This document shows, piece by piece, positions 9,704-32,836 of a stretch of DNA of 40,506 nucleotides (positions are counted from its first letter, which is position 1; every line of letters starts with the position of its first letter). The DNA is from Saprospiraceae bacterium. GTDB taxonomy: Bacteria; Bacteroidota; Bacteroidia; Chitinophagales; Saprospiraceae. A model generated the notes under the pieces. That model was not told where the DNA came from. It did not search any database and saw only the letters and a program-made list of their open reading frames with translations. The translations under genes were made by a program, and so were the position numbers. The stretch covers positions 1-40,506 of the forward strand of contig DAIPYV010000001.1 in the NCBI GenBank assembly GCA_036782555.1, in the 5' to 3' direction.

Positions 9704-9728
9704 AATTAGTTATTAATAACCTAATAAT

Positions 9729-9753
9729 GGGGTGATATAACTTGTCATGTCTA
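9729..9753 (-). promoter_or_regulatory. Late motif copy A: TAGACATGACAAGTTATATCACCCC (putative late promoter core)
   Basis: Read on the - strand. Ends 25 nt before ATG 9703. ATGACA-N16-TATTAG geometry. Confidence 0.6.
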
Positions 9754-10467
9754 TTAGATAGATAGACCAGTGTACAAAAAGTAGTTACTCATTAAGACTT
9801 GTTTATTTGTGTTATTTCCAAATAAAATAGCTTGTGGACTTGTGAGTAAAGTTATATCAAATGATAAATAAATAGACAAAAATAATCCACCCAAAATTGC
9901 CGATAATTCTTGAGGTAAGGTATTGATTTTAGTTTTATTAGAAATTACTGAGCTTAGAGACCTGTCAAACAAATTAAAACTATATTTAAAATATAAATTT
10001 GAAAACTTTTTAGTAGTGTTATTATAGACAACATCTCCAACTTTCAGACTATATAGAACGCCTGTGTCGGTGTTGTTAGTCATTGCAAAATCGTTAAACC
10101 ATTCTACTGTGTAATAAATTGGTATTGTATAATCAGACGTAACTGATGTTGTAGGCCCAGTAATATTAGAGACCAAAGATCCCCCACCTTGCAGTATAGC
10201 CGTATTGACTTGAGAATACCCTAACTCTTGAAAAGTCGGCAAGTATGTAATACTGCCTTTAGCTCTTTTATATAATCCTTGACTGTTCAGTGTACCTGTC
10301 AATAAATTAGTTGCACAAGGCACAAAGATATTTTGAGCTAAAAAACTATTTTGTGGCTGCTCTATTTTATCCTTTTGTTTTTCAACCAAAGTATCAATGA
10401 CAATTTGATTACCATCTCTTGTATCTGAAGTTGCTGAATCCGCAAAAGTACTGTTAAATTCCATCAT
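9754..10467 (-). CDS. Tail tip/baseplate protein, function unknown
   Basis: ORF track, 237 aa; position in the tail module; ATGA overlap with the upstream gene. Confidence 0.4.
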   Translation of the reverse strand: MMEFNSTFADSATSDTRDGNQIVIDTLVEKQKDKIEQPQNSFLAQNIFVPCATNLLTGTLNSQGLYKRAKGSITYLPTFQELGYSQVNTAILQGGGSLVSNITGPTTSVTSDYTIPIYYTVEWFNDFAMTNNTDTGVLYSLKVGDVVYNNTTKKFSNLYFKYSFNLFDRSLSSVISNKTKINTLPQELSAILGGLFLSIYLSFDITLLTSPQAILFGNNTNKQVLMSNYFLYTGLSI

Positions 10468-11624
10468 AAAAAATTATATAAATCTACTCCATTGTTAAAT
10501 CCAATAAATATTTTTTCTGTGTTAATATCAAAACCATCTATGGGTATCCTAAATATATTTTGGATATTTTCTTTAACTCTAATCTTAATTTTAGAACCTT
10601 CTAATAAAAATATATTAGGCATTAGATCTATGTCTAGGGAAGGGTAGAGTTCTCTGACATTAGTAATAACTACTTCGGGACGTTTAAACCAGTTGTCTTG
10701 TGATATTTGATAGGCACTAGCTACAGTTGGTAACTGATCAAAATCACCGACTTCTACTACAGTATTGTTATCTTTGTCTAAGCCAATTTCTCGCCATTTC
10801 CAACCTGTTGCTTCCACAATTTTGTTTAATAGGTCATAATTATCATATACTCCAGTTTGAACTTGAATTACTTTATCTTCTTGCTTAGAAATGAATTTAA
10901 ATTTAATTGGTGATAAACCGTTAAGCAAATTCAAAGCAAAACCTGAATAGACTTTATTAAGTGGAACAATTCTTTTTTCTCTTTTAATTTCTAAAATAGA
11001 AGAGTAAAAATGAATATCACTTGAACCTTCTAATCTGTTAATTTGTTGTTTTATACTGATTCTTTTAGCATTCTGTTTTAAAAAGTTCACACCCTGTCTA
11101 TATATTCTAGCCTGCAACGCATTAATGTCAGTAGCTTCCAACATTTCTACATTATCAGTAGTATCAGTTTGCGTTGAATAGACTTGAATTTCATAATACT
11201 TTTTAGTACCAGATTCATAATCAGCTGACTGAATATAATAATATGTTTTATCATTTATCATGACAAAGTCTTCTAAAGAAAGAGGATAATCTAATATTAA
11301 ATATCCATTATTAAAGTTATCTAAACCTACTGTAGTATTTTCATTTGTTCCTTGCCCTGTGTCTGCTAAAACTAATAAATGGGTTATTTTATTAACCGAT
11401 TTAGAAAAGCCAATCTCATAATTATTAATTTTAACTCTTATTTTAGCTTCTGGAATAGATCTTAGATAATTATAGCTATGATTAAGATTATGATTAATTG
11501 TAATATCTAATTCTCTATATTGACTTAAATTTGTCATAATACGACCCAACTCAAAACCATAAGACCCGAAATATATTGGTACAATATTATTGTAGTTTAT
11601 ATCAGTAGTATGTATTTGTAGCAT
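10464..11624 (-). CDS. Tail-associated/baseplate protein, function unknown
   Basis: ORF track, 386 aa; synteny only. Confidence 0.4.
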   Translation of the reverse strand: MLQIHTTDINYNNIVPIYFGSYGFELGRIMTNLSQYRELDITINHNLNHSYNYLRSIPEAKIRVKINNYEIGFSKSVNKITHLLVLADTGQGTNENTTVGLDNFNNGYLILDYPLSLEDFVMINDKTYYYIQSADYESGTKKYYEIQVYSTQTDTTDNVEMLEATDINALQARIYRQGVNFLKQNAKRISIKQQINRLEGSSDIHFYSSILEIKREKRIVPLNKVYSGFALNLLNGLSPIKFKFISKQEDKVIQVQTGVYDNYDLLNKIVEATGWKWREIGLDKDNNTVVEVGDFDQLPTVASAYQISQDNWFKRPEVVITNVRELYPSLDIDLMPNIFLLEGSKIKIRVKENIQNIFRIPIDGFDINTEKIFIGFNNGVDLYNFL

Positions 11625-11626
11625 AT

Positions 11627-12307
11627 TTAAACCGTAAATCCGTTGCTAATGTCGTATATAATATAATTAGATTTATCAAAGTTGTTGCCTGACGCATTGG
11701 CACCTAAAATTGATATAGGTTCGCCTGCAAAACTGGCATTATTAATACTAGCTAAAATAACTTTAAGTCTATAATACCAAACACCAGCTGTAGGCACTAA
11801 ATCAATAATCCTAAATTTCAAATATCTAAATTGACTATTTGGACCTGAAGTTACAAAATAAAATTTCTCTTGATTACCCGCTATTAAAGTGCTAGCTGTA
11901 AAAACACTAGTACTAGATCTTTCCATTACCGCACCTATAAGATAATCCCCAGCTGGTCCTGTAGCCTCAAAAGCTTGTTGTAAGTATAAGTCTACATTTG
12001 CATTAGGAAATTCTGTGACAACTTGGATTTGTTGAGCTGTCTTAAAACTATTCCCTAAAGTAAAGCCATTATTTGTCATCTGTATAATATTTTTTTGGGG
12101 TCGAATATGCCTAGATCTTATAGCTGCATTGGCTATTTGATCTTCCGTCCAACCAGCACCGCCAATAGTACGCTCATAAAAAGCTCTTTGGGTCTGCAAA
12201 TAATTATCAAGTGAGTTCCAATTAGGATTGTTGATTGGGTTAGCTACGTTGACGTTTGAACCGTCTGAGCCTAAAGTAACGTTAGGTGTATTTGGTGATA
12301 TAGACAT
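11627..12307 (-). CDS. Tail-associated protein, function unknown
   Basis: ORF track, 226 aa; synteny only. Confidence 0.4.
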   Translation of the reverse strand: MSISPNTPNVTLGSDGSNVNVANPINNPNWNSLDNYLQTQRAFYERTIGGAGWTEDQIANAAIRSRHIRPQKNIIQMTNNGFTLGNSFKTAQQIQVVTEFPNANVDLYLQQAFEATGPAGDYLIGAVMERSSTSVFTASTLIAGNQEKFYFVTSGPNSQFRYLKFRIIDLVPTAGVWYYRLKVILASINNASFAGEPISILGANASGNNFDKSNYIIYDISNGFTV

Positions 12308-12308
12308 A

Positions 12309-13589
12309 TTAACTATTCCATGTTTTAAGATTTTTGATTATCATTTTATTTGTTCTTGTAGGTGAAGAAGCTACATTGTGTCTGGCTTGTAAAATATCTC
12401 CTTGCTCATATTGGACATACTCTGAAATTGGATATAAGCCCCTAAATTCAAGTAAAAATGTTGATTTACTTTGAGGCATATATTCGAGTGTATATTTACC
12501 AGCATAATCATTATAAGGATCTAGAAAATTTCCCTTTCCGTCAAACACTCCATCTTGGACTTGAGTTCTAATCACTATTTCTCCAGGACACTGTTCTCTA
12601 GGAGCTAACCATGTAAATTTAAAACCTGTTCGTGTAGATGTATTATACAAACTTATAGACTCGTTTTGATCAAAAGCATTAGCATTTATACCTGAAGTGC
12701 TATAGTTTAAAAAATAAACAATTGACACACTATTAGTTGCATTACTCATCAGATTGAGTCCGATACCTTGTGTTATGTCTGCAATACCACTAGGCAAAAC
12801 ATTGGTGTCAATTAATAAAGGTTCGTTACGAGCCATGTTATCAATAAAATCAACCTCTAAATATCTTTGCCTCGGTTGGTTGCCATATAATGGCTTACCT
12901 TCAAAAGAATAAAAAAATACATCATAATAATAAAATAAACCAGCTTCATTACATTCTATTTTGTCCATGTAAATTTTCTTTTCTTTTCGAGCCAACGAAT
13001 TGAATTTGACTGTAGTCTCATTTATATCATCACCATACTGGCCACCTCCACCATAAGTAGTGAAAAAGCTACCATACAAAAACTTTTTATATAAATGTTT
13101 TTTATCAGGGGTCAAATAAACTAAATAATCGTTGTCTGCCTCATACATATAAGGTGTCATCAAACGAATCTTAAAAGACAATGTTATAAACTCAGTGCCA
13201 TTATCTCTAGCCTCTATATTACTTTGTGTGATAGGCTCAATGACATGAGCATAATTATATTTTATTCTATAATCTACCTCATTTGAACTCATTTTACCTG
13301 TATATACTTTTTTATTATATTTCTCAGCAAAAAAGACTATTTGAGGTCCTTCATACATTAACCTTTGGATAGAATGAATATCATCTACATCGGAGTTATA
13401 CAAAAAGCTTATTTCATACTCTAAATCATCTTTTTTATCAGCACTTAAACCATTTTGTTTTACTGAACCGTTAGAGTAGGGGGTAGATACAATTTGAGTC
13501 TTAGCACCTGATTTAATAAGTTTCACTGCATTTAAGCCATGAAAATTATAAAAACCGAATTGAATTATTTGAGGTATGTTTAAATCCAT
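12309..13589 (-). CDS. Distal tail protein (Dit) candidate
   Basis: 426 aa, immediately downstream of the tape measure gene, which is the usual Dit position in siphoviruses. Confidence 0.4.
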   Translation of the reverse strand: MDLNIPQIIQFGFYNFHGLNAVKLIKSGAKTQIVSTPYSNGSVKQNGLSADKKDDLEYEISFLYNSDVDDIHSIQRLMYEGPQIVFFAEKYNKKVYTGKMSSNEVDYRIKYNYAHVIEPITQSNIEARDNGTEFITLSFKIRLMTPYMYEADNDYLVYLTPDKKHLYKKFLYGSFFTTYGGGGQYGDDINETTVKFNSLARKEKKIYMDKIECNEAGLFYYYDVFFYSFEGKPLYGNQPRQRYLEVDFIDNMARNEPLLIDTNVLPSGIADITQGIGLNLMSNATNSVSIVYFLNYSTSGINANAFDQNESISLYNTSTRTGFKFTWLAPREQCPGEIVIRTQVQDGVFDGKGNFLDPYNDYAGKYTLEYMPQSKSTFLLEFRGLYPISEYVQYEQGDILQARHNVASSPTRTNKMIIKNLKTWNS

Positions 13590-13591
13590 AA

Positions 13592-15970
13592 TTAGATTGC
13601 TGATTGTCTGGTTTTAAATAGATTAGCATTAGTACCAAAGTTATTATAAGTGTTATTTTGAATATTAGTCACTGATTCTCTGGACTCACCAATACCCCCT
13701 GAATTATTACGATTTAGACCGCTAACATTTTGACCTTGTAATAGCTTACGTGTATCAGAATTATTAAATACATTAGTACCCTTAGGCAAGTTAATAATTT
13801 CTGGACCCTGTTCACCTACTACAGCATAACCTCCACCAAAGTTTCTAACACCAGTAGCAAAACCAGGTATTGTTGGTAATAATTTAGGCTTAGTGATACC
13901 AGGTATTTCAGGTATGGATTTTACTATATCGTTAATATTATTAATTAATCTGTTGGCTTGATTAATAGCTACATTACCAGCTGTTCTAATACCACTACTC
14001 ACAATGCCAGCCAGCCCATTAAATACATCACTAAATATTCTACTGATAGAGTTTGCAACATCAACAAAAGTATTTCTAAAATCATTAAGTGGTCCTTGAA
14101 CTCTAGTATTTAAATCATTAAAACCGTTAACTATTGGCTGTAAGTTTCTGACATAAAAACCTCCTGCAATACCTAAAACAAAATCAGCGAAACTTTGTAC
14201 ATCATTAATTAATTGAGTCACTTTTGACCCTACAAAATTGGCTACAGTCTTAAAAGCTTCCACAAGTACTTTACCAACATAAAACGTAGCAACCTGACCT
14301 AAATAGATTAATATATCAATATAAGGCTGAAATGGAGCTATGATTGAGGCTGCCCAGTTAGTAATAAAATTAAGTATGCCTGTAAACACATTGCTTATAG
14401 TCTGTCCAAGTATGTTTGCCTGCTCAGTCAAAAATCCCCAATTTTGGTATAGTAAGATACCTGCGGCAATTACTACTCCAATTGCTAAACCAATTAAAAA
14501 TAATGGTGATGTAACAAATGCTAAGACCGCAGCATAGCCAGTAGTCACAGCAGTAGCTATAGCCATGACAGTATTATAAATCTTTACACCTGTAGCTACA
14601 ATCCCAAAGCCAATCCCTAAACCTAACAACACACTAGCCAAAGTATTAATCCAAAAACTATTATCATTATACCAATCTGAAATTTGATTTATTAAACTAG
14701 GAAGTTGTTCAATCTGTTCAATTACATAAACTAAACCATTGCCAATAGATGTGAAAACTGACGGGTCAATTGCTCCTAATAAGTCATTAAAAGAAGTACC
14801 TAATTGACTTAACTTAGGTAATAATGGACTTATAGTCTGGATTGATAAAGTTTCAAATGTGCCTCTTAAAGTTTCTAATACACCAGCTAAGTTATTCAGC
14901 CTTTCATTCGCCACATCTTGAGCAGATATAGCATTTATAGAGACTTTAAGAGCGTCAAAGTCTTTGGCTCCACCTTTGGCTAATATTGCAGCGGCTCTTA
15001 TAGCGTCACTACCAAAAATAGTTTCTAAAGCCAGAGATTTTTGAGACTCAGATAAACCTTTAGTAGCATTAGTTAAAATTTCTGAGATTTGGGATAAATC
15101 TTTAAATGAACCGTCTGCATTCAAAAAAGCATTACCAACCCCATTAACAGATAAACCTAATTCATCAAAAGCTGCCTCTGCTGTGTTTGTTGTTGGAATT
15201 AAATTATTTAAAAATGTTTTTAGTGATGTTCCAGCGTCAGATCCCTTCAAACCGTTGTTAGTAAATAAAGCAAGAGCAGTAGCAGTATCTTCAAAACTTT
15301 GTCCAGCTAAAACAGCTACATTACCAACGGCAGCGAGACCAAACTTAAGATCGCTCATATTAGCTGCACTAGAATTGGCAGCACCTGCCAAAATATCCGC
15401 AGCTCTGGATACTGACAAACCATCTTTACTAAAAGTATTTAACGCTGTAGAAGCTAAAGTTGCAGCGTCTGCAACAGCGATACCACCCGCGGAGGCTAAA
15501 TCTAAAGCTCCTGCAATACCACCATTTAGTACCTGATCAAGACTTAAACCTGCTTTTAAAAGTTCTTCAAAACCTTGTGCAGCTTCTAAAGCTGAGAATG
15601 CTGTATCTTTTCCTAAAGTGATTGACACAGCTTTAATCCTTTCTATTTCTGTTGCTGTAGCACCTGTTAAAGCTTTAATTGAGCTAATTTGTTGTTCAAA
15701 ATTAATTGCTATGCCAAAACCATTAGATAACAAAGCAGAAGAGGTCTGCACTCCTTTAGTCACTGCATTTGCAAGTAATGTACCAAAAGCAAAATCAAAT
15801 ACTCTGCCAATACGAGTACCAAAACCATCAAAACCTTTACCCAGATTTTCTGCTGATTTAGACCCTGCATTAGCTCCTAGTTTTTCAAATCTATTGAAAA
15901 AATCATTACTAGTTCTCTGAGCCTGATCAAACAGGATTTGGTATTGTGATTGAATTGCGGAATCTGCCAT
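13592..15970 (-). CDS. Tail tape measure protein
   Basis: 792 aa. The TP901-type core (ISSIKALTGATATEIERIK..LGKDTAFSALEAAQGFEELLKAGLSL) is followed by a long hydrophobic/Gly-Ala-rich region. Canonical position after the G/GT genes. Confidence 0.9.
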   Translation of the reverse strand: MADSAIQSQYQILFDQAQRTSNDFFNRFEKLGANAGSKSAENLGKGFDGFGTRIGRVFDFAFGTLLANAVTKGVQTSSALLSNGFGIAINFEQQISSIKALTGATATEIERIKAVSITLGKDTAFSALEAAQGFEELLKAGLSLDQVLNGGIAGALDLASAGGIAVADAATLASTALNTFSKDGLSVSRAADILAGAANSSAANMSDLKFGLAAVGNVAVLAGQSFEDTATALALFTNNGLKGSDAGTSLKTFLNNLIPTTNTAEAAFDELGLSVNGVGNAFLNADGSFKDLSQISEILTNATKGLSESQKSLALETIFGSDAIRAAAILAKGGAKDFDALKVSINAISAQDVANERLNNLAGVLETLRGTFETLSIQTISPLLPKLSQLGTSFNDLLGAIDPSVFTSIGNGLVYVIEQIEQLPSLINQISDWYNDNSFWINTLASVLLGLGIGFGIVATGVKIYNTVMAIATAVTTGYAAVLAFVTSPLFLIGLAIGVVIAAGILLYQNWGFLTEQANILGQTISNVFTGILNFITNWAASIIAPFQPYIDILIYLGQVATFYVGKVLVEAFKTVANFVGSKVTQLINDVQSFADFVLGIAGGFYVRNLQPIVNGFNDLNTRVQGPLNDFRNTFVDVANSISRIFSDVFNGLAGIVSSGIRTAGNVAINQANRLINNINDIVKSIPEIPGITKPKLLPTIPGFATGVRNFGGGYAVVGEQGPEIINLPKGTNVFNNSDTRKLLQGQNVSGLNRNNSGGIGESRESVTNIQNNTYNNFGTNANLFKTRQSAI

Positions 15971-15973
15971 GGG

Positions 15974-16231
15974 CTAGGTTTTTTTTCTAAACGGATAATG
16001 TATTTTAATAATTTTACCAGTTTTATCTTGAGGAGGGTTTAACCTATGATAATTCTCTTCTTGTCTATTAATCATGTGGACGTATGCTTGAGTCATTTCC
16101 AGCATTGTAAAGTTTTCTATTACTGGTCCAAAATTATTAAGTACAAGATCAAAATAAATACCTACCATGCCTTCAACTAACTCACCTGATTTAGTGCTTT
16201 TTGACTGGTCAAAGACAATAGTTGAAAAAAA
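15974..16231 (-). CDS. Tail assembly chaperone, -1 frameshift extension (GT-type product, joined to 16812..16225)
   Basis: The -1 frame is open from the T7 slippery run (16225-16231) through ATG 16168 to stop 15974 (..FFSTIVFDQSKSTKSGELVEGMVGIY..). Confidence 0.6.
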   Translation of the reverse strand, partial: FFSTIVFDQSKSTKSGELVEGMVGIYFDLVLNNFGPVIENFTMLEMTQAYVHMINRQEENYHRLNPPQDKTGKIIKIHYPFRKKT

Positions 16232-16812: not shown

Positions 16813-16831
16813 ATATATAGAATTTTAAAGT

Positions 16832-18133: not shown

Positions 18134-18153
18134 ACGTATTTTTACTTTATAAT

Positions 18154-18178
18154 GGGGTGATATTACTTGTCATGTCTA
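18154..18178 (-). promoter_or_regulatory. Late motif copy B: TAGACATGACAAGTAATATCACCCC
   Basis: Its TAG is the stop codon of ORF 18176..18835. ATGACA-N16-TATAAA. Ends 20 nt before ATG 18133. Confidence 0.65.
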
Positions 18179-18835
18179 CCACAGATCTAAGCTCTGTTGA
18201 TGACTCTGACTATTCCATTTATTGATGTCTGACTCTATAACTCTTAGGTTATAAGTAAATCCACCAACAACAAAATTTCTTTGATTAAATTCTTCATTCA
18301 ATAGCTCAAACCTTGAATTAGGTTGAATCTTATTAAAACTTAAAGTTGTTTTATATTTATGGCCTTTTAAAGGATCTGTATTTTTTACATCAGTGTTAAT
18401 TACTGAACTCACTGGACTATCTGTTGTCAGTATAGCCTCTAAACTATCTAATACATCAATCAGTCTTTTTTTGGCATTAAATACAGGGTTTCTACTTTTA
18501 TCTTTAGTTATACCTGTCTTAGCTACTCTTGCATATATGTTATAGTCTAAGCTTGTATGTCTACCGCATATTTCAGGTCTTGTAGCTCTATCAGCTTCAA
18601 AAGAAACTAAAACCTCAAGCTCATTTGTATTTACATATTCATTAAATAATATGTCGTCTTGGTTATGAATAACTTTAGCATTTCTAAATATTGGCTTTGT
18701 TTTACTACCCTCTAAGACGTTTTCTTGGTAGTCTGTAGCAACCTTTAATATCTGATGTAAAAACTCGTCTATGGCGTTGTTATGCCCTAATCTTATAGCT
18801 TCATTTAATTGTGGTATTTGTGACAGTGGAATCAT
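18176..18835 (-). CDS. Tail terminator / tail completion candidate
   Basis: 219 aa; position between the gp10-like gene and the major tail gene. Confidence 0.35.
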   Translation of the reverse strand: MIPLSQIPQLNEAIRLGHNNAIDEFLHQILKVATDYQENVLEGSKTKPIFRNAKVIHNQDDILFNEYVNTNELEVLVSFEADRATRPEICGRHTSLDYNIYARVAKTGITKDKSRNPVFNAKKRLIDVLDSLEAILTTDSPVSSVINTDVKNTDPLKGHKYKTTLSFNKIQPNSRFELLNEEFNQRNFVVGGFTYNLRVIESDINKWNSQSHQQSLDLW

Positions 18836-18838
18836 ATA

Positions 18839-19288
18839 CTATTTGTCTAATCTTTTTCTCCTTTGTAGAATATTTTTTTGTTTTCCTTTTTCTAAATTTC
18901 CACTTTGTTTTGAGCCACCTTTACCAAACACTCTCTGTAAATTACCTGCCTCAAATAATTGTTTAGCTTTTAAAGCCGAGATTAAATTAAATTTTCTAGG
19001 ACCATAAGATTTGTTACTCCCCAATCCAAAGTATACATACTGTGCATACTCTACATTATTTGTGTTAAAGGTTATATTTATTGATTTGGTAGTAGATATT
19101 ATTTTTGCGTTGGTCCTAGATTTTAACAGACCAGTATCCACAGCTTCGAGATCTTGGACAGACTGTTTAGCAATTTCTTGTAAAACAGGTTGTAAAGTTC
19201 TAATTTTAGTCTCTACAACGTTCCTTACATTACCCTGTAAACTGGATATAATTCTTTTTTTATTTAATAGTTTTAAATTTCCTTTCAT
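18839..19288 (-). CDS. HK97 gp10-like neck/tail-completion protein
   Basis: 149 aa. EAVDTGLLKSRT resembles the vDTG.L..S motif of the HK97-gp10 family. Position fits. Confidence 0.55.
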   Translation of the reverse strand: MKGNLKLLNKKRIISSLQGNVRNVVETKIRTLQPVLQEIAKQSVQDLEAVDTGLLKSRTNAKIISTTKSINITFNTNNVEYAQYVYFGLGSNKSYGPRKFNLISALKAKQLFEAGNLQRVFGKGGSKQSGNLEKGKQKNILQRRKRLDK

Positions 19289-19716
19289 TATATTGCAATT
19301 CCAATTACTTCTAACATACCAACTTCTAAACCTGCATGGCGTGGTATATCTTTAATTTCTAATCTCACCGTATCTTCAAGATCTCTAGGCTCATAAGGTC
19401 GTCTTGCCATAAACTGAGACCTGTTAAAATACACATAGTCACCTTTTTGAATAACCTTTTTATCACCAGCACCTAAATCAAAATAAATAATATACATTTC
19501 AGTTCCCCATGTGCCAAATTCTTCAGCTATTTGCTCTTTAAAAGCTGAGTTTATAGACTCAAAAGCTTCAATAAACCTAAACTGATCATCGGGTAGGGGA
19601 ATCTCAACAAGTTCTTTTTCAGTGTCAGACTGTAGGAATTGTTTCTGGTTCTTGACTACTCTGTACACTTGGATACCTGTCTCGTATTGTATAAAATTGC
19701 GGTGTGGGTTCCTCAT
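19288..19716 (-). CDS. Head closure / head-tail joining protein candidate
   Basis: 142 aa; synteny. Its only ATG gives a 92-nt overlap with the upstream gene. Confidence 0.35.
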   Translation of the reverse strand: MRNPHRNFIQYETGIQVYRVVKNQKQFLQSDTEKELVEIPLPDDQFRFIEAFESINSAFKEQIAEEFGTWGTEMYIIYFDLGAGDKKVIQKGDYVYFNRSQFMARRPYEPRDLEDTVRLEIKDIPRHAGLEVGMLEVIGIAI

Positions 19717-20416
19717 ATTGTAAGCTAATTGATTTAAAAAGAGGTTTGATATTATATTTGTTGAGACAGCTAGCTTCCAATAAATCAGTGATAGGAGTAC
19801 CAGAAATAAGTTTATTTGCTATGTCTACATAAGACTGGTTAACTTCTACTTTAGAAGTCATATTACGGCTTTTTTCGTCTGTCTTATAAGAATATACTTG
19901 AGAAGTTAAACCGTAACCACTGTTAGTAGTTAAAACTTTTTTCATTGATTCAACTAATAAGTTGACAACATCAAACGGAGGAGTAGCAGAGTAACCATAA
20001 GAGCCAGTGATTCTTATTTTTTCGCATTGGCAATAACAAGGGTAGTAACAGCTAAAGTCTAAACCTGTAATACACAGTCTATCCTTAGAAAATTCATAAT
20101 CAAAATCAACTCCTAGAGTTAATACTTTTGTTACTATACCCTTGTTAATCTGTTCTATGATTAATTCAGGCGAAGACTGCCAGCACCCTATAGCAAGGTA
20201 ACTGGCATTACAATTGTCAATCTTGTATACTTTAGATACTTGAGGTGTAACCTCAAAAGTTACTCCTGTAAATGTATCAATCTGTTGACTCCATGACTTA
20301 AAAAAATTGTCTATATAAACAACACTAAACCCTGACGGGATAACAGACAACCCCGTCAGGGAAGTAAAAGAGTTAGTTATCCCATTATTGAAAGTAACAT
20401 ATGGTAAACTTGGCAT
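19625..20416 (-). CDS. Head-tail adaptor candidate (Cys-rich)
   Basis: 263 aa with DFSCYYPCYCQCEK; synteny only. Confidence 0.35.
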   Translation of the reverse strand: MPSLPYVTFNNGITNSFTSLTGLSVIPSGFSVVYIDNFFKSWSQQIDTFTGVTFEVTPQVSKVYKIDNCNASYLAIGCWQSSPELIIEQINKGIVTKVLTLGVDFDYEFSKDRLCITGLDFSCYYPCYCQCEKIRITGSYGYSATPPFDVVNLLVESMKKVLTTNSGYGLTSQVYSYKTDEKSRNMTSKVEVNQSYVDIANKLISGTPITDLLEASCLNKYNIKPLFKSISLQYEEPTPQFYTIRDRYPSVQSSQEPETIPTV

Positions 20417-20435
20417 GCTGTCTGTGCTTTCTAAT

Positions 20436-20654
20436 TTATTGAATTGAACCCTCTAACTCATCTTGAGTTAAATCTTCATCATTATTGCTATTAGACTTAA
20501 GTTTTTTATTGGTAGATTGATTCTGTTCTTCTAAATAACCTTCTTTTACCCATTCGTTAATAACGTAATAAGGTACACCTAATTTTTCAATTTCTTCTTT
20601 AGAATAAATTCTATCAATTTCAAAACCGTTTAATTCGTTTATTACTTTATACAT
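20436..20654 (-). CDS. Hypothetical protein (72 aa)
   Basis: ORF track; head module. Confidence 0.45.
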   Translation of the reverse strand: MYKVINELNGFEIDRIYSKEEIEKLGVPYYVINEWVKEGYLEEQNQSTNKKLKSNSNNDEDLTQDELEGSIQ

Positions 20655-20656
20655 AA

Positions 20657-21022
20657 TTATTTAGTCTTATTTTTAATTTCAGCTCTATTAGCTTCAACTT
20701 GTAATTTCATTTGTTCATCTCGCATTGCAACCTCACTTAATATTTCACCCCACTTTAATGGAACGTCTATTGCTCTTTGGTCATAATCGAAATTAATAGT
20801 AGCATTTACAATATTTTCAGGTATTGGATATGTCGGATACTTAGTATCAAGATCGTCTATAATCATCATCTGTTCTGCTTTAAACAGAGACATTGCCTCA
20901 TCAAAAATAAGGGTATCTCTGTCTATTTCAAAAGTCTGTCCAATTGTAAATGATTTATTTTCAAGAAGACTGTTAGAGTTTCTTAAAAATAGTTTTGCAT
21001 TAGTATTTAGTTTAAATTTCAT
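20657..21022 (-). CDS. Hypothetical head-associated protein (121 aa)
   Basis: ORF track; first gene downstream of the major capsid gene. Confidence 0.4.
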   Translation of the reverse strand: MKFKLNTNAKLFLRNSNSLLENKSFTIGQTFEIDRDTLIFDEAMSLFKAEQMMIIDDLDTKYPTYPIPENIVNATINFDYDQRAIDVPLKWGEILSEVAMRDEQMKLQVEANRAEIKNKTK

Positions 21023-21046
21023 AATAAATAAGTCTGTTATTATTTA

Positions 21047-21071
21047 ATGATTAATATGATTAATATGATTA
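21047..21071. repeat. 9-bp tandem repeat ATGATTAAT x2.8
   Basis: Read directly in the gap after the capsid gene. The last unit overlaps the capsid stop codon. Confidence 0.6.
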
Positions 21072-22235
21072 TACAGGGAAAGCTATAGATCTCTGTACGA
21101 TAGTGTCTTGTTGATTAATAGGCATAGCAACCGCTAAATCCATTATAAATTCAACTCTAACACCTTGTGAAGGAGAATTGTTTAATAAGTTCTCTGAGAT
21201 TTCAGGTCTAGTTTGTTTTGTTGCTATTGCAGCAATTTTACCAGAATATATCTTAGAAGAGTAAGTACCATTGACGTCTACTGTACCTAAAGGCATTGAG
21301 TCATCAACTAAAATGTTGAATCCATCAATACAATATACTTTACAAGTCTGAGGTGGGCAAATTCCAGCACCTAATACATAAGGTCTCTCCATTGCATCAG
21401 AATCATAGAAGAACTTTTGGAAAGTTACAGGGTCCATAACATGGATAATCTCAGACATTCCAACTTTACCAGTTGTTAACACTGAAGTCTGGTTAGAAAT
21501 TAGAGTCTGTCTAATACCTGAAGTAGTAGCTGGTAAATTAGTTGCTTGAGCATTCATCAACTGATAAATATCGTCTCTGATTTTTCTCTTAAGAGCTAAA
21601 GGAGCTTGAATCATTACAAATTCCAACATGTTCAGACAGTCATTACATTTTAACCGTCTTCTTGAAATTTCAACCATTCCACCAATTTGATAAGGTGCTA
21701 AAGTAGTACATACTAAAAAGTCTGTAGCGACTGGAGTTCCAGATCTTTGGAAGCTTGGAGACAAATCAAATGGGATTGAATTCTCACCCATAAATCTTGC
21801 TCTAGGTTTTCCTGTAAATGAAGCAAACTGTTCAGTACAAGTACCTATAGAAATTGAGTTAGTAGTGTATTCTTCAATACCACTCTGACAGTCATAAACC
21901 ATCATCATAATATCGGAACATCCAACTATATCGCAACCTGAGTTACCTACAGTCAAACCTCTGAGACCATTATCTTCTATCTCTTCTACATTATCATAAT
22001 TAAGTCTGGCACCTTCAATGCCTAATCTATCTAATTTGCGGTTAAGACCATCTACAAAAGAAGGGTTGTCAATTAAAAATGAGTCAACTGCACCAGCTAT
22101 CTCATTTAGCTCAACATTATAATTATCCCTTAAATTTTGCTCAAGGGATGACCTTAATAGTTCATCGGCAGCCTCGACACCTGCTTTATTAGTTTTTCCC
22201 TTGAATTTTTGGGATAAAGATTTATTTAGTTTCAT
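21069..22235 (-). CDS. Major capsid protein
   Basis: 388 aa, follows the scaffold gene and is preceded by late motif C. Synteny-based; no motif recognised. Confidence 0.65.
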   Translation of the reverse strand: MKLNKSLSQKFKGKTNKAGVEAADELLRSSLEQNLRDNYNVELNEIAGAVDSFLIDNPSFVDGLNRKLDRLGIEGARLNYDNVEEIEDNGLRGLTVGNSGCDIVGCSDIMMMVYDCQSGIEEYTTNSISIGTCTEQFASFTGKPRARFMGENSIPFDLSPSFQRSGTPVATDFLVCTTLAPYQIGGMVEISRRRLKCNDCLNMLEFVMIQAPLALKRKIRDDIYQLMNAQATNLPATTSGIRQTLISNQTSVLTTGKVGMSEIIHVMDPVTFQKFFYDSDAMERPYVLGAGICPPQTCKVYCIDGFNILVDDSMPLGTVDVNGTYSSKIYSGKIAAIATKQTRPEISENLLNNSPSQGVRVEFIMDLAVAMPINQQDTIVQRSIAFPV

Positions 22236-22262
22236 AGAATTATTTAATAACTGTTTAACTAT

Positions 22263-22287
22263 GGGGTGATATTACTTGTCACGTCTA
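22263..22287 (-). promoter_or_regulatory. Late motif copy C: TAGACGTGACAAGTAATATCACCCC
   Basis: Its TAG is the stop codon of ORF 22285..23532. Ends 27 nt before ATG 22235. Confidence 0.6.
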
Positions 22288-23532
22288 CCTAGCCTTAGCA
22301 TATCCTTCAAAGATAGATCTGACATCAGAGTTTTCAATGTTGGTTGGTTTAAAGCTTCTAGTAGTTGGTTGGTCTCTACTTTCCATCTTAGATATAAAAC
22401 TACGATTGAGATTAAGTAATTCTTCAGCTTCTTTTGATTTTGCTTCAGCAACAGTTTTGATATCATTTGATAGAGTTTCTACTGTAGATCTTAGATTTTC
22501 TAAACTAGATTTTAGGGTATCTATTTCTAGTTTTCTTTGCTGTTCTTGAGCCTTGTTGTCAGCTTCAAGCTTGTCTGCTTCTTCTTGAGCCTCTTGCTCA
22601 GCTTTTAGTTGCTCTTCAGTAGGTTTAGAATCATCAGTAGGTTTAAAATCTTCAGTAGGTGGAATAAGAGCTTCTGGTTTATTTACCTCTTCTTCAGCCA
22701 TCCTCGTAGCTGTATCTTCTGCTAATCTTTTTTTCTCTCTCTCTTTTTTCATGTCACACATTATGCAACGATTACTCTGATCTTGGTCTAAAGTAAATTG
22801 GTCTAAAGGCAAAGTTAACTCAAAAATACCTTGGTCGTCTTTGCCTTCAATTCTACCAAGGTTTAAGTCAGTGTCAAATTCAGTGAGTTCGCCTGTAAGT
22901 TCTACACCGCGAAAAGTTGTTTTTAGGATATCTCCTTCGTTAAATAGCATATAGTTGTTGTTATTAAATTTTCTTAAAGTTGATGATATTTCGCCTGAGC
23001 TAGGTTGCCCTGGCATATCACCTGTAGTAGAAACTAGAACAGATATCCTAGTTAACCACCATCTGTTATAATGTATTCGACCTGATTTAGATCTGACAGT
23101 ATCAGTAGACCTAAAAGGCTTATCATTGAACTGTAGAGATATACCTTTGATTATGCCTTGCTCATAAGCATCGTATGAACTCATGATTTTATTTCCTCTA
23201 AAATCAGTTATATAGTTTTCCTTAGAGTACTTTACTTCACCCATTAAATAAGGTGTACCATTATCACCGAACTCATTCCATATTCTTTGGACATCACCAG
23301 CTATATCTACATTAGTTGACTCTTTAATCCCTCTTTCATGGTCATAGTGGCTGGTATCCATTCCAATGTTTTTGACTGGGGTAGCCTGTCTTACATTTTC
23401 ACAGCCAAGAGGATTTATCACTGTATCAAAAAGGTCAGGTATGTCACTGACTAATCTATAAGTAACATAGTAAGATTTATCTACAGATGATATTTTGACG
23501 TCAGTCTGTTCAGCTATTGTAATATTTGACAT
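22285..23532 (-). CDS. Scaffolding protein (possibly protease-scaffold fusion)
   Basis: 415 aa. The C-terminal third is an acidic/Lys coiled coil (KPTEDFKPTDDSKPTEEQLKAEQEAQEEADKLEADNKAQEQQRKLE). Lies between the portal and capsid genes. Confidence 0.5.
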   Translation of the reverse strand: MSNITIAEQTDVKISSVDKSYYVTYRLVSDIPDLFDTVINPLGCENVRQATPVKNIGMDTSHYDHERGIKESTNVDIAGDVQRIWNEFGDNGTPYLMGEVKYSKENYITDFRGNKIMSSYDAYEQGIIKGISLQFNDKPFRSTDTVRSKSGRIHYNRWWLTRISVLVSTTGDMPGQPSSGEISSTLRKFNNNNYMLFNEGDILKTTFRGVELTGELTEFDTDLNLGRIEGKDDQGIFELTLPLDQFTLDQDQSNRCIMCDMKKEREKKRLAEDTATRMAEEEVNKPEALIPPTEDFKPTDDSKPTEEQLKAEQEAQEEADKLEADNKAQEQQRKLEIDTLKSSLENLRSTVETLSNDIKTVAEAKSKEAEELLNLNRSFISKMESRDQPTTRSFKPTNIENSDVRSIFEGYAKAR

Positions 23533-23547
23533 TGTTATCTACAATAT

Positions 23548-23572
23548 TGTGTGATATTACTTGTCACGTCTA
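23548..23572 (-). promoter_or_regulatory. Late motif copy D: TAGACGTGACAAGTAATATCACACA
   Basis: GTGACA-N15-TATTGT, then 8 nt to ATG 23532 (near-leaderless geometry). Confidence 0.55.
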
Positions 23573-23667
23573 AAGTAGTTTTAGTTGGTGGTGTAAAATA
23601 GCAATATTATGCAACTACGGGTAAGAATATTAAGCTGTTTTCTCTCTTCTTAATAACAAAATAGAAG

Positions 23668-25749
23668 TTAAATTACAAAACCATTATCCAGTACTTTTTC
23701 TCTAGTACTGTAAAAATAAGTACATCTACAGCCAAACTCTGACCAAGGGGTAGATGAACCACCCGGTGCAGTAGTTCCAACTTTCCAAGCTCTACCATCG
23801 TTAGCTCGGTGAGTCGGCCTTACATTCTCATCTGATACATCCAAAGCACCAACCCAATCATCGCCATTACTTAGAGCTATATCTTCTGTAAACTCATAAT
23901 ATAAAGAGGCAAATAAACCATCTTCTAAACGTTTAAATCCATTTTCTAGAAAATAATCTTTTCTAGCTGTAAAATAATCAAACACATTACCATCTCCAGA
24001 TTCAGATATAATTTTTAATTCTTTATTCAGCATTTTAGATGTAGTTTGGCTAGTCCCTGCAAAATCTTCATCTCCAAAGGTTTGTTTTATTTTTTTATCT
24101 ATTATGTCATCTTTGTTTTTAATCTCGTCTATAATTGCTTTATATGTGGTTTGATAATCTTTAATACTCTCTTGAGCTATTATATCCAACATTTTTATAA
24201 GTTCTTCTTTGCTTAAAGCTTGAGATAAATCAGGGTAAGTGTAATTACCTACATCAATTCTATTAAAAGAGATAGACTCTAAAAAAGAATCATATTGTTT
24301 AGACAAGACCTTTTTCAGTTTGTTTTTAACACTAATTATTTTCTTATTTTTATCAATATTGTTGTAGGTAGACCCTTTAATATTTTTTTTTAATGCACGA
24401 GTATTTTCATCTAGATTGTTATTTGTATTTTCTGTAGTATTAGCTATAACAGTTGCAGGTGTTTGAATATCTTCTAACTCAAGATCTAATGATACTAAAA
24501 GTTTAGCTATAGATTCTTGCTTAACTTTAATTCCCATCTTATACAGATTAGGTAATACTGAATTAATTGTATTAATGTTTTGTGCTCTAATTGCAATTGA
24601 TTCGGCAGTAGGGTCTTTAGGATAAACTAAGTGATAATCGTTATTAGTAAAATTATTATCAGATAAATAGTTTAAGACCCATGTACCAGCATCTTGTAAT
24701 AGATTTTTCCAGTATTGCACTGTGACCTCGCCTAGGTTGTCACGGTCCTGTTCTGATTTAGCTCTGTTATTAGCTGCGTCATTAGTTAAAGAACCTGCAA
24801 TTGAACAGCCTGTATATATCTTTTTATCACAGTATTCTAGGAGCTTGTCTACCATATTTTGATTAAGAGCCTGTGACAAAGTTTTGGCAATCAGAGGCAT
24901 AGGAGTGACCACCGCATTAGCATTATCTCTTAGAGCTGACTGCATGTTACTTACATTTTGTTCCCATGATTCAGCCCAACGTTTTAATAATTTTTCACCT
25001 TCAATACCTCCTTGTGCTACACTCTGATAATCAGGACTTATAGCTGTTGCCTCTTTAAAACCACCTTGAGCTTTGTTTTGAATAGCTGCAACAATAGTCT
25101 TTTTTAAAATTATGTATGGAGATACTTTTCTTAAAATAGAAGTAGATCTAAGTTGTAAATCACTAAAGGTGATAAGCTTACAGTCCTCAGGACTTAAATA
25201 TTTAAAGTGACTGTTGTTTCTTAAAACATTAAAGGCTACTATCTTATTTTTAGACCAGTCAATCATAGGTTCTACATGTTTTCTCAGTCCTGTTCTACAC
25301 GGTTGAAACTCTATCTTAGGAGTTTTATAATCCCAGGTGTTAAGATAAATTACACCCATTCCATAGCCTGCAAACAACTCATTGAATATCTCATTTTCCA
25401 TTTTATGCCAATCTATAAAATCTAAATAATCTGTGTATTGATTTATAATTTTATTGTATTTACCAGTGATTTTAGGTGATACTTTAAAAAGCTGTGAGGT
25501 TAACACAAGATAACAAGCATTAAACTGCTCATCATTTTTTAAAATTTCTAAGTCCTGATAAGAGTTTGTAGGCTCTGTCAGTGGCATGATAAGACTTGCC
25601 TGATTAGTTTGCCCTATCCTATATACATCATCTACATTACTTGGTTTAGGTAACTTAGGGGTATTCTGGAACGCTCTTAGATTATTAGTAACCGTGTTAA
25701 TAATCTCAGTAGTCTTATTATCTAAATAATTTTGAATAGGATTTGGCAT
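23668..25749 (-). CDS. Portal protein fused to a C-terminal MuF / SPP1 gp7-like minor head protein domain
   Basis: 693 aa in the portal position after TerL. The C-terminus VRPTHRANDGRAW..PWSEFGCRCTY matches the Phage_Mu_F signature (..H....dG.......CRC). Confidence 0.7.
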   Translation of the reverse strand: MPNPIQNYLDNKTTEIINTVTNNLRAFQNTPKLPKPSNVDDVYRIGQTNQASLIMPLTEPTNSYQDLEILKNDEQFNACYLVLTSQLFKVSPKITGKYNKIINQYTDYLDFIDWHKMENEIFNELFAGYGMGVIYLNTWDYKTPKIEFQPCRTGLRKHVEPMIDWSKNKIVAFNVLRNNSHFKYLSPEDCKLITFSDLQLRSTSILRKVSPYIILKKTIVAAIQNKAQGGFKEATAISPDYQSVAQGGIEGEKLLKRWAESWEQNVSNMQSALRDNANAVVTPMPLIAKTLSQALNQNMVDKLLEYCDKKIYTGCSIAGSLTNDAANNRAKSEQDRDNLGEVTVQYWKNLLQDAGTWVLNYLSDNNFTNNDYHLVYPKDPTAESIAIRAQNINTINSVLPNLYKMGIKVKQESIAKLLVSLDLELEDIQTPATVIANTTENTNNNLDENTRALKKNIKGSTYNNIDKNKKIISVKNKLKKVLSKQYDSFLESISFNRIDVGNYTYPDLSQALSKEELIKMLDIIAQESIKDYQTTYKAIIDEIKNKDDIIDKKIKQTFGDEDFAGTSQTTSKMLNKELKIISESGDGNVFDYFTARKDYFLENGFKRLEDGLFASLYYEFTEDIALSNGDDWVGALDVSDENVRPTHRANDGRAWKVGTTAPGGSSTPWSEFGCRCTYFYSTREKVLDNGFVI

Positions 25750-25762
25750 ATATATTGCTAGA

Positions 25763-26188
25763 CTAAGTGATACTAGATGTCATGTCTAGATAATCTTTAT
25801 AGGCTTTTGATAGTAATTGATATAATGTTTTTGCTTTTTCCATATCCGTCAAATAATGATAAGCCAATTTCTTAAGTGTATAGTCAAAAGTTTCTTCATC
25901 AACTGATTTTCTTATTCCTGTAAGTTGCTTCCTAAAGAAAAAGTTAGCTGGGATTTGTTCTCTTCTTTGTAAGTACCATATGTACTTACGGATTACCGCA
26001 GGGTCTTTCTCTTTAATATTTTGCATTTTGGATATTTGATAACAGGGCAAAAAAGAATGTTCTTTAATGATTAATTTATCACTATCAATCAATTGAGAAT
26101 AATCGTGTAAAATCTGTCTTTTATTAGCCAGAGGTTTAAAGTGTGTTCTTTGAGATAAAAACTCGTGTATTGTTTGCTTATTTTCCAT
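25763..26188 (-). CDS. Hypothetical protein (141 aa) between TerL and portal
   Basis: ORF track. Its last 8 codons contain late motif E. Confidence 0.5.
   Translation of the reverse strand: MENKQTIHEFLSQRTHFKPLANKRQILHDYSQLIDSDKLIIKEHSFLPCYQISKMQNIKEKDPAVIRKYIWYLQRREQIPANFFFRKQLTGIRKSVDEETFDYTLKKLAYHYLTDMEKAKTLYQLLSKAYKDYLDMTSSIT
25764..25788 (-). promoter_or_regulatory. Late motif copy E (degenerate): TAGACATGACATCTAGTATCACTTA
   Basis: Shares TAGACATGACA and TATCAC with the other copies. ATGACA-N17-TAGCAA, then 5 nt to ATG 25749. Embedded in the 3' end of ORF 25763..26188. Confidence 0.45.
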
Positions 26189-32815: not shown

Positions 32816-32836
32816 ATCATCTTAATTAATAATTAC

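Follow-up and report, generated by a model that had tools for sequence, protein, structure and literature searches.

What are the five closely similar 25-nt repeats that precede structural genes in an orphan phage? The window, i.e., the stretch of DNA analysed here, is the whole 40.5-kb phage contig (40,506 nt), and the lineage is one without a cultured or annotated relative. A first-pass annotation had described the repeats as a distinct class of late promoters that depend on an activator or phage factor. Comparison of the sequences leads us to think it likely that the repeats are promoters. Our preferred reading, to which we assign a probability of about 0.45, is that they are internal promoter cores of the structural-gene block, switched on late by a phage factor; here "late" is a label assumed from gene content only. 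Promoters at these positions would provide a transcription map for the lineage, define five structural-gene modules, predict leaderless expression, and make the 25-bp motif a ready bait for the regulator.

A pattern search allowing up to three mismatches recovered copies A–D at exactly the minus-strand positions first given for them (Table 1), each fitting the IUPAC consensus with 0 mismatches; the consensus was matched in 0 of 100 shuffles, and 0 matches were expected by chance. Copy E, which had been described as degenerate, matches at 18 of 25 bases, retaining TAGACATGACA and TATCAC, with the 5 nt between them altered. When a weight matrix built from copies A–D was used to score all positions on both strands, copy E scored 18.6 and ranked fifth genome-wide, ahead of a next site at 10.3. 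The maxima in shuffled sequence (n = 50) had a mean of 10.8 and a largest value of 18.9, so that copy E is borderline on score alone, yet it is on the right strand and 14 nt before the portal ATG. Only these five sites rose above background in the whole genome, all at module starts.

On the 5′ side the element begins abruptly at TAGAC. Mean pairwise identity among copies A–D is 0.30 upstream, 0.91 over positions 1–25 and 0.61 over positions 26–31, then falls to background; the spacer is better conserved than the −10. This drop in identity from the −10 onward makes a recent segmental duplication unlikely, since a duplication would not stop there.

All copies are co-oriented with the genes and lie directly before the first genes of structural modules. 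The gaps between the end of the motif and the ATG (25, 20, 27, 15 and 14 nt for A–E) are exactly those claimed, and the same is true of the stop codons formed by the leading TAG in copies B and C and of the location of copy E within the 3′ end of an upstream ORF. Four of the six gaps of at least 30 nt that lie from terS to the end of the block contain a copy. The motif stands in front of only 5 of the ~34 genes of the block, and no terminator-like site was detected next to any copy.

The names given to the downstream genes held up to different degrees. The portal assignment agrees with weak Pfam matches, and the protein is 52–53% identical to P0003. The scaffold, capsid and major tail assignments agree with synteny and homologues: the scaffold-like protein is 51% identical to the product of the gene after the portal gene in a distant relative, L005; the capsid candidate, which gave no match in family profile searches, is 47% and 26% identical to the same-position proteins of L005 and another relative, L010, respectively; and the tail candidate is 37% identical to the same-position L010 protein. 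For the ORF named "fibre 2" no match was found in Pfam, PHROGs or PDB sequence searches; the block that it heads includes a 1079-aa fibre-like protein and an amidase.

Table 1. Motif copies, putative −10 hexamers and neighbouring features in the window
Feature	Position	Strand	Details
Copy A	9729..9753	−	TAGACATGACAAGTTATATCACCCC; behind TAA stop of ORF 9754-10467; 25 nt to ATG (9703) of 331-aa ORF
Copy B	18154..18178	−	TAGACATGACAAGTAATATCACCCC; TAG is stop of ORF 18176-18835; 20 nt to major tail ATG (18133)
Copy C	22263..22287	−	TAGACGTGACAAGTAATATCACCCC; TAG is stop of scaffold gene; ends 27 nt before capsid ATG (22235)
Copy D	23548..23572	−	TAGACGTGACAAGTAATATCACACA; in 135-nt gap behind portal gene; 15 nt to scaffold ATG (23532)
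Copy E (degenerate)	25764..25788	−	TAGACATGACATCTAGTATCACTTA; in 3′ end of ORF 25763-26188; 14 nt to portal ATG (25749)
Putative −10, copy A	9724..9729	−	CATTAT, 18 nt after TAGACA
Putative −10, copy B	18149-18154	−	CATTAT
Putative −10, copy C	22258-22263	−	CATAGT
Putative −10, copy D	23543-23548	−	AATATT
Putative −10, copy E	25760-25765	−	TAGTCT, 17-nt spacer after TAGACA
331-aa ORF ("fibre 2")	8708..9703	−	after copy A; heads fibre and lysis genes
Tape-measure gene	13592-15970
Major tail protein candidate, 433 aa	16832..18133	−	after copy B; upstream of two small ORFs and tape measure
Major capsid candidate	21069..22235	−	after copy C; by position and homologues in relatives
Scaffold-like gene	22285..23532	−	after copy D; C-terminal half Glu/Lys/Ala-rich
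Portal gene, C-terminal Mu-F-like part	23668..25749	−	first gene after copy E; weak Pfam matches Portal_Mu, Phage_Mu_F
KilA-N DNA-binding-domain protein	1884-2597		only regulator candidate identified
Early sigma-70-type promoter	35169..35197	+	TTGACA-17-TATTAT, contains TGACAAGTTAT; two others start at 430 and 39413

The promoter reading draws on the co-orientation of the repeats with the genes, their placement at module starts, the lack of RNA structure or Rfam matches, and the repeated motifs that relatives have of their own. These observations indirectly favor the promoter claim of the first-pass annotation, although the register in which it had read the motif is probably not the right one. 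That register, with RTGACA as the −35, gives spacers of 16, 16, 15, 15 and 17 nt and leaves four of the five −10 hexamers without their last T. If TAGACR is taken as the −35 instead, copies A–D show a constant 18-nt spacer followed by NATNNT, a hexamer with A as its second and T as its sixth base; TAGACR is also the only workable register in L005 and in the second copy of the L013 motif. We therefore consider TAGACR the probable −35. Hexamer matches, however, tie between the two registers (9, 9, 8, 8, 8 vs 9, 10, 7, 9, 8), and the 11-mer TGACAAGTTAT, which, just as had been noted for the first class of early cassettes, the late motif has in common with three plus-strand early promoters (at 431, 35170 and 39414), counts for the original register. 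The early promoters of this phage follow the consensus TTGACA-17-TATAAT.

With TAGACR as the −35, 8–9 of the 12 sigma-70 hexamer positions match, including A2 and T6 of the −10. Such matches are weak evidence, being about as common in shuffled sequence: one hexamer scan of this AT-rich DNA gave 118 matches vs 92 ± 10 in shuffles, and a second gave 64 vs 61 ± 8, with no discrimination.

In the layout that we propose, the five copies would represent the conserved core shared by a set of internal promoters and divide the block into modules for the portal, the scaffold, the capsid with head completion, the tail, and the fibres with lysis. Motif positions 1–6 (TAGACR) would serve as the −35, positions 7–24 as an almost invariant 18-nt spacer and positions 25–30 (NATNNT) as a weak −10. 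Transcription would begin ~37 nt from the first T of the motif, with predicted starts near 9717, 18142, 22251, 23536 and 25753, and the resulting mRNAs would be leaderless or carry very short leaders (~4 to 16 nt); Shine-Dalgarno sequences are not used in this system. Short-leader promoters appear to be normal for this phage, given that a Shine-Dalgarno-like sequence is found at just 2 of the 56 genes and that promoters often lie 35–40 nt from the ATG (35–39 nt for several early ones). Finally, a phage-encoded factor, either DNA-binding or RNA-polymerase-modifying, would read the region from about −37 to −13 and turn the promoters on late. We infer such a factor because conservation is far stronger in the spacer and the off-consensus −35 than in the −10 and because the corresponding sites of related phages have a different sequence, specific to each phage. 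That the repeats, besides being promoters, need a phage factor is a tentative proposition, a little short of an even bet.

Relatives of this phage are scarce. Searches of 50,697 phage records with megablast and tblastn revealed none for the late region or the capsid, at the DNA or protein level, and those with the terminase and helicase returned distant matches only. An exhaustive portal search yielded a few distant relatives on short contigs. In three of these (L005, L011 and L014), a repeated motif that differs from that of the window, with only two copies in each case, stands before the portal gene, the gene that follows the portal, or the capsid gene. L005 (47–53% amino acid identity) has TAGACTTACTRTAAATCAGTWACTATAWT at both the portal–scaffold and the scaffold–capsid junction. 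This motif can be read as TAGACT-17-TATATT/TATAAT, apparently a near-textbook sigma-70 promoter; it opens with the same TAGAC, and the upstream stop codon is again TAG. Its distance to the ATG is also similar, namely 37 nt in L005 vs 40 nt in the window at the first junction and 53 nt vs 52 nt at the second. L011 has two copies of TTGTAACTCCGCCCT, before the portal and capsid genes, and L014 two of TTAAAGGTGAAAAAKRGTAWAAT.

Not all relatives are organized in this way. In L013 the internal gaps are absent altogether, and TTGACTTGAC occurs twice before the portal gene, the second copy reading TTGACT-18-TATACT, while in L009 and L010 near-consensus −35 boxes could be picked by eye without any repeated spacer. 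This pattern implies that the arrangement is not universal and that a factor need not be required. At the junction corresponding to copy D, promoters picked by eye lie 36 nt (L008) and 37 nt (L009) from the ATG; the picks in L008, L009 and L010 are non-unique, and in L010 an objective scan found better-scoring alternatives in the same gaps. Our promoter inference is confined to the repeat-anchored sites, i.e., those of the window, L005, L011, L013 and L014.

Attempts to find exact matches to the motif elsewhere gave chance matches only, two in viral contigs (inside coding sequence) and one in a metagenome contig (within a giant ORF), with none in genome contigs; the L005 motif was absent from viral contigs. 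Protein-guided locus searches of viral and genome contigs with the capsid, the terminase, the portal and a portal alignment returned nothing. Word-indexed protein searches found no further capsid and, for the portal and the scaffold, a single additional protein each, from L005 in both cases.

Could the repeats be ordinary host sigma-70 promoters that act without any phage factor, i.e., weak, constitutive sites that top up abundant structural proteins, with the copies nearly identical because one cassette spread by duplication or gene conversion? The L005 version is indeed near the consensus (TAGACT-17-TATAAT), and boxes such as TTGACA, TTGCCA and TTGACT occur in L009, L010 and L013. The early promoters of the genome are likewise near-identical cassettes with conserved spacers, and the TGACAAGTTAT common to the late motif and one early class suggests common descent. 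However, similarity among the early cassettes extends over ~100 nt and amounts to 60–76% identity, whereas that among the late copies is confined to exactly 25 nt, at 91% identity, and gives way to background upstream. Sigma-70 selection alone should leave the −10 better conserved than the spacer, and the late copies show the reverse. All five of them, like L005, share the TAGAC deviation, in contrast to the early promoters, which retain TTGACA. On balance, we consider plain sigma-70 promoters rather unlikely; were this the case, our results would amount to routine annotation.

We regard as improbable that the repeats are operators for a phage repressor, which would recognize either the 25-mer or an imperfect dyad within it (RTGACA-N5-TATCAC, positions 6–22). 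Such a repressor would sit in a promoter spacer or block elongation in a stoperator-like manner, so that the structural genes stay off in the early phase or in a carrier state, and it might in addition occupy the three early promoters that share the core TGACAAGTTAT. The sites are asymmetric, in a single orientation, and overlap stop codons; copy E keeps both half-sites with the 5 central bases changed, and the same positions 6–22 of the first L005 copy form a perfect 6-N5-6 dyad (TTACTG-N5-CAGTAA). Nevertheless, the dyad is weak and by itself not significant, with 4–5 of 6 pairs in the window and 4 of 6 in the second L005 copy, and an equally good one is expected in a random 30-mer with p = 0.47 (0.05 for a perfect dyad); the coincidence of position has a probability of ~5e-4, a post hoc figure. 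Furthermore, Pfam, PHROGs and NCBIfam revealed neither a repressor nor an integrase or any other lysogeny gene among the ORFs, and the sites number just five, each at the start of a module. The stoperators of phage L5 have a TTGACA-like core and are asymmetric, one-orientation repeats in small gaps at stop and start codons, a disposition found again in the repeats of Cluster K phages and in the window motif. L5, however, is temperate, with dozens of sites (>20) spread over both arms of the genome and a known repressor, whereas the window has five sites and no lysogeny gene that could be detected.

An RNA-level role is no more probable in our estimation. In that case the motif would act within a long polycistronic late transcript, as a processing site, a site for a translational regulator, or an enhancer that replaces the Shine-Dalgarno sequence. 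The start codon is at most 27 nt from every copy, on the sense strand, the host system lacks Shine-Dalgarno sequences, and with no terminator-like hairpins before the copies a read-through RNA would contain the motif. Against this, the spacing between motif and ATG is variable (14–27 nt), the motif is found at just five of the ~34 genes, fold z-scores range from −1.24 to +1.62 with folds that differ between copies, and there was no Rfam match at the gathering threshold. The motifs of the relatives, moreover, read as −35/−10 pairs with 17–18-nt spacing, and the ATCACCCC part presumably resembles the 16S rRNA 3′ end itself and not its complement. The start-associated sequences of Cluster K phages differ as well, in that they lie a fixed 3–8 nt from the start codon and include a ribosome-binding site, whereas the window motif lies 14–27 nt away, with no Shine-Dalgarno sequence.

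Recognition by an alternative host sigma factor, e.g., of the heat-shock type (−10 in enterobacteria, CCCCATNT), in place of a phage factor is very improbable: TAGACA agrees with TTGAAA at 4 of 6 positions, and CCCCATTA or CCCCATAG, with CCCCAT, follows 15 nt after TAGACA in copies A–C, but CCCCAT is missing from copies D (CACACAATATT) and E (CACTTAGTCT) and from all the relatives' motifs, and the host, judging from the lack of Shine-Dalgarno use, is clearly not enterobacterium-like.

To return to our main reading, the repeats are most likely a family of internal "late" promoters, a type of control element well known from phages, although this phage itself is not. As in activator-dependent late systems, several copies of one element (five in the window) head the late modules, and L005, L011 and L014 have their own repeated motif at the same genes. 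The closest analogue in layout, to whose family the motif does not belong, is provided by the Lpa-dependent late promoters of P1, a short element present in 11 copies before morphogenesis, packaging and lysis operons (PMC10695390). In P1 the Lpa site has its centre at −22 and occupies the region that separates the −10 from the position of a −35 (PMC3152322); three promoters in the P1 record show AAGTGATTT, AAGTTACTT or ATGTGACTT, then 4 nt, then the −10. With TAGACR as the −35, the best-conserved block of the window would similarly span about −37 to −13, with AAGTWATAT centred near −22/−23. Unlike the P1 box, AAGTWATAT is not a 9-bp inverted repeat, and the −35-like TAGACR is present, whereas P1 promoters lack a −35. 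The host, with its predicted leaderless mRNAs and no Shine-Dalgarno sequences, is also unrelated, and no Lpa homologue was found among all ORFs of at least 40 aa in six frames (best E-values of 1.1 with phmmer --max and 0.11 with blastp).

The promoters activated by P2 Ogr/P4 Delta and by Mu C resemble those proposed here in number (about four late promoters per genome), in their association with morphogenetic operons, and in combining a poor −35 with a conserved activator site. The Ogr site, though, has its centre at −55, and the region bound by Mu C extends from −30 to −55 (PMC3152322). The conserved block of the window (−37 to −13) lies downstream of those sites, and conservation does not extend upstream of −37; Pfam, PHROGs and NCBIfam detected no Ogr- or C-like protein among the window ORFs. 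In T4 middle promoters, a phage box replaces or overlaps the −35 of a promoter with a sigma-70 −10, while early promoters have a consensus −35. The likeness to the MotA/AsiA system lies in a phage-specific box at the −35 region next to consensus early promoters in the same phage, but the block in the window measures 25 nt, vs a 9-bp box at −30 in T4, and no MotA or AsiA homologue was found with Pfam or PHROGs. T7-type promoters, too, are conserved phage-specific stretches of ~23–25 nt that are repeated before late genes and differ between related phages. The window motif differs in containing sigma-70-like hexamers, and no ORF in the window matches an RNA polymerase gene, the ORFs above 450 aa being the fibre, tape measure, portal and amidase.

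A more specific version of our preferred reading, which we put forward as possible but doubtful, is that a phage specificity factor of an undescribed family, not recognizably similar to Lpa, Ogr, C, MotA/AsiA, RinA or sigma factors, recognizes positions 6–25 and co-evolves with the motif. If so, each member of the clade would have a late-promoter code of its own at the same junctions, i.e., TAGACRTGACAAGTWATATCAC in the window, TAGACTTACTRTAAATCAGTWAC in L005, TTGTAACTCCGCCCT in L011 and AAAGGTGAAAAA in L014. Since TGACAAGTWAT overlaps the −35 of one early-promoter class, the same protein could shut off that early class and open the late promoters, acting as a single-protein switch from early to late expression in a host able to translate leaderless mRNAs. 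Motif turnover at conserved positions would make a compact natural example of promoter–factor co-evolution, and could yield orthogonal promoter/factor pairs.

The two ORFs originally proposed as positional candidates for the regulator (25763-26188 and 29119-29622) gave no protein-family match, and a PDB sequence search with the former was empty; their single-sequence AlphaFold models (pLDDT 45 and 38, respectively) were too poor for a fold search. Pfam searches on the neighbours of the relatives' portal genes produced nothing useful. Among the ~50 ORFs searched with Pfam, PHROGs and NCBIfam, the KilA-N protein was the only regulator candidate found.

Pattern searching with up to three mismatches permitted returned four copies (A–D) of the motif consensus, each without a mismatch and all on the minus strand, and none in shuffled sequence. 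With a weight matrix derived from A–D, the degenerate copy E ranked fifth genome-wide, scoring 18.6 against 10.3 for the next site; the maxima of shuffled sequences averaged 10.8, although one reached 18.9. Copy E retains TAGACATGACA and TATCAC, with five intervening bases altered. The repeated motif described in the first-pass annotation is real, and so are the particulars given for it: the distances to the start codons, the overlap of its TAG with the upstream gene's stop codon in copies B and C, and the location of copy E inside the upstream ORF.

The mean pairwise identity of copies A–D was 0.30 upstream of the motif, 0.91 over its 25 nt and 0.61 over the next six nt, falling to background beyond. 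The 5' edge is sharp at TAGAC, and conservation fades where a -10 hexamer would sit. From terS to the end of the block, a copy occupies four of the six gaps of at least 30 nt. The 46-nt gap behind the capsid gene has no motif and holds a tandem TCATATTAA TCATATTAA TCATTAA. About 145 nt upstream of the amidase gene, TTGACGTGACAGTCGTAATCAATG agrees with motif bases 1–11 except for one change; this may represent a sixth copy that has decayed, or a chance match (~0.4 such matches expected).

Positions of the motif copies, with both promoter registers (spacer in nt, -10 hexamer, matches out of 12 positions), and of other features
Feature	Position (strand)	ATG	Motif end to ATG (nt)	RTGACA as -35	TAGACR as -35
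Copy A, 331-aa ORF	9753-9729 (-)	9703	25	16, TATTAG, 9	18, CATTAT, 9
Copy B, tail	18178-18154 (-)	18133	20	16, TATAAA, 10	18, CATTAT, 9
Copy C, capsid	22287-22263 (-)	22235	27	15, TAGTTA, 7	18, CATAGT, 8
Copy D, scaffold	23572-23548 (-)	23532	15	15, TATTGT, 9	18, AATATT, 8
Copy E, portal	25788-25764 (-)	25749	14	17, TAGCAA, 8	17, TAGTCT, 8
Minus-strand block	32053-2608 (-)
terL-portal slot ORF (contains copy E)	25763-26188 (-)
Slot ORF, L008	631-1071
Slot ORF, L010	2692-3231
Second positional candidate ORF	29119-29622
KilA-N gene	1884-2597 (+)
Portal gene	23668-25749 (-)
TTGACGTGACAGTCGTAATCAATG, within ORF 4559-4789	4660-4683 (-)
Gap behind capsid gene	21023-21068 (-)
Hairpin, within ORF 19625-20416	20330-20361 (-)
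Early cassettes	32788-39480 and 381-520 (+)
Tandem duplication, in ORF 37024-37404	37146-37259 (+)
Leucine-rich-repeat units	1-443 and 40381-40506
L014 elements	4103-4213 and 6731-6790

The window comprises an entire contig, equal in length (40,506 nt) to the longest member of the capsid cluster, and has a GC content of ~32%. Its minus-strand block opens with a replication initiator and DnaB, followed by small ORFs with a TTGACA promoter ahead of each, terS and terL, a 141-aa ORF, portal, scaffold and capsid, head-completion genes, a 433-aa tail protein and the tape measure, distal tail genes, the 331-aa ORF with a 1079-aa fibre-like protein, and finally the amidase. The plus strand carries the early genes, preceded by terminator-plus-promoter cassettes (TTGCAC/TTGACA-17-TATAAT). 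In these cassettes a T-run terminator hairpin precedes one of two promoter classes, each near-identical internally (TTGCACAAAAATAAAAAGWAATATATAAT and TTGACAAGTTATAAAATATAAT, three occurrences each), and then a second conserved box (AAACTTAATTnATTGACAGCTA, three occurrences). Only 2 of the 56 ORFs in the whole window have a Shine-Dalgarno-like sequence, and an ATG lies 35–39 nt from several consensus promoters, a distance at which leaderless or near-leaderless mRNAs would be normal here; together, these observations imply leaderless translation.

Several lines of evidence suggest that the motif copies are promoters. They share orientation and sit at module starts; no RNA fold was found in them, and Rfam and tRNA searches gave no hit; phage-specific repeats with -35/-10 geometry recur before the same genes in three relatives (contigs L005, L011 and L014), and a doubled box also precedes the portal gene in a fourth, L013. 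The promoter reading of the first-pass annotation is supported in kind, but its register, with RTGACA as the -35, should probably be replaced by one in which TAGACR takes that role. The TAGACR register keeps the spacing constant and preserves A2 and T6 of the hexamer, places the -35 on the conserved 5' edge, and is the sole register workable in L005 and in the second copy of L013. What speaks for RTGACA is the 11-mer TGACAAGTTAT, which the motif core has in common with three early promoters; in those, the -35 is clearly TTGACA. We assign the TAGACR register a probability of roughly 60%, and regard RTGACA as the less likely, though still serious, candidate. In either register, transcription would start ~35–42 nt from the first T, giving predicted leaders of ~4 nt for portal and scaffold, 9 nt for tail, and 14–16 nt for the 331-aa ORF and capsid.

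Neither a DNA match nor a capsid match to the window was present among 50,697 phage records, a word-indexed protein search found no capsid homologue, and scans of viral and genome contigs found nothing. The nearest terminase matches, at 43% identity, were in Helicobacter pullorum prophages. The phage is thus an orphan, and its lineage is itself new. A portal search yielded a single relative, P0003, encoded on the 4.7-kb JGI contig L005, with identities of 53% (portal), 51% (scaffold) and 47% (capsid). Both portals show the same architecture, an apparent C-terminal fusion to a Mu-F-like head-morphogenesis domain (weak Pfam hits for the window protein).

The two intergenic gaps of L005 contain a repeat of its own (TAGACTTACTGTAAATCAGTAACTATATTT; TAGACTTACTATAAATCAGTTACTATAATT), readable as TAGACT-17-TATATT or TATAAT. 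In both copies TAG is the stop codon of the preceding gene, as in the window, and the scaffold and capsid ATGs follow at 37 and 53 nt; for copies D and C the corresponding distances are 40 and 52 nt. When the portal alignment was used in an exhaustive profile search, 53 further, more distant relatives emerged, whose contigs we retrieved. L011 carries TTGTAACTCCGCCCT twice, in the 3' end of the pre-portal ORF, like copy E, and ahead of the capsid gene. The more distant L014 (listed alongside L015 and L016) has TTAAAGGTGAAAAAKRGTAWAAT ahead of portal and of the following gene; this element differs from the window motif, having a -10 and no TTGACA-like -35. In L013 the structural genes are tightly packed, and the 237-nt pre-portal gap carries TTGACTTGAC twice, with a doubled box, T[TA]GACNTGAC, that also begins the window motif. 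Its second copy reads TTGACT, 18 nt (TGACTCACAGTAATGTGT), TATACT, and only the first box has the correct -10 spacing. We chose the promoter-like sequences at the same junctions of L008, L009 and L010 by visual inspection; because objective scanning of L010 gave alternatives, they play no part in the argument. From relative to relative (L005, L011, L014), the conserved block is replaced wholesale.

Dependence of these putative promoters on a phage factor is plausible. Spacer and -35 are equally invariant and conservation is lowest in the -10, whereas selection by sigma-70 alone should conserve the hexamers and leave the spacer free. All five copies, and L005 with them, deviate from TTGACA in the same way; the early promoters of this genome retain TTGACA. 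Conserved spacer, shared deviation and turnover between relatives form the pattern of phage-specific late-promoter systems. An imperfect dyad, RTGACA-N5-TATCAC (motif positions 6-22), lies in the same place as TTACTG-N5-CAGTAA in L005, but is not significant alone, and the second L005 copy lacks the dyad.

The two ORFs named in the first pass as purely positional candidates gave no family hit and unusable structure models. One of them fills the terL-portal slot, occupied in the window, L008 and L010 by ORFs of 141–179 aa; despite conserved flanking genes, no similarity was detectable between the window ORF and either counterpart, which is compatible with, but no evidence for, a fast-evolving specificity factor. 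Only one protein is recognisable as DNA-binding, a KilA-N protein (Pfam 1.5e-18). It has an anti-repressor-like C-terminal part, and its gene, the last of the plus block, terminates 10 nt away from the late block's own end.

In layout, the closest analogue is phage P1, whose 11 late promoters have in common a 9-bp inverted repeat to which Lpa binds (PMC10695390), with the site centred at -22 (PMC3152322). Three promoters in the P1 record have AAGTGATTT, AAGTTACTT or ATGTGACTT, then 4 nt and the -10. AAGTWATAT of the window occupies about the same place as the Lpa box; however, it is not an inverted repeat, the window promoters have a -35-like box, and a search of the window for an Lpa homologue found none, so we rejected membership of this family. 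Membership was likewise rejected for the other systems compared. The sites of P2 Ogr and Mu C lie further upstream (PMC3152322). Stoperators and start-associated sequences do not fit in site number, lifestyle or spacing. T7-type promoters depend on a phage-encoded RNA polymerase, and the window has none. The motif belongs to a well-known kind of element; the phage lineage that hosts it is new.

Among hairpins in the late block, the strongest has a perfect 12-bp stem with eight G-C pairs (CCCTGACGGGGT...ATCCCGTCAGGG) at about codons 19-29 of its ORF. It lacks a proper T-run; following the capsid operon, it might serve in attenuation, pausing or RNA stability. Both window ends carry 66-nt (22-aa) BspA-type leucine-rich-repeat units (Pfam LRR_5, weak); joining end to start does not keep the repeat reading frame, and the contig was probably broken within the array. 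The tandem duplication on the plus strand has a 57-nt unit, with 91% identity.
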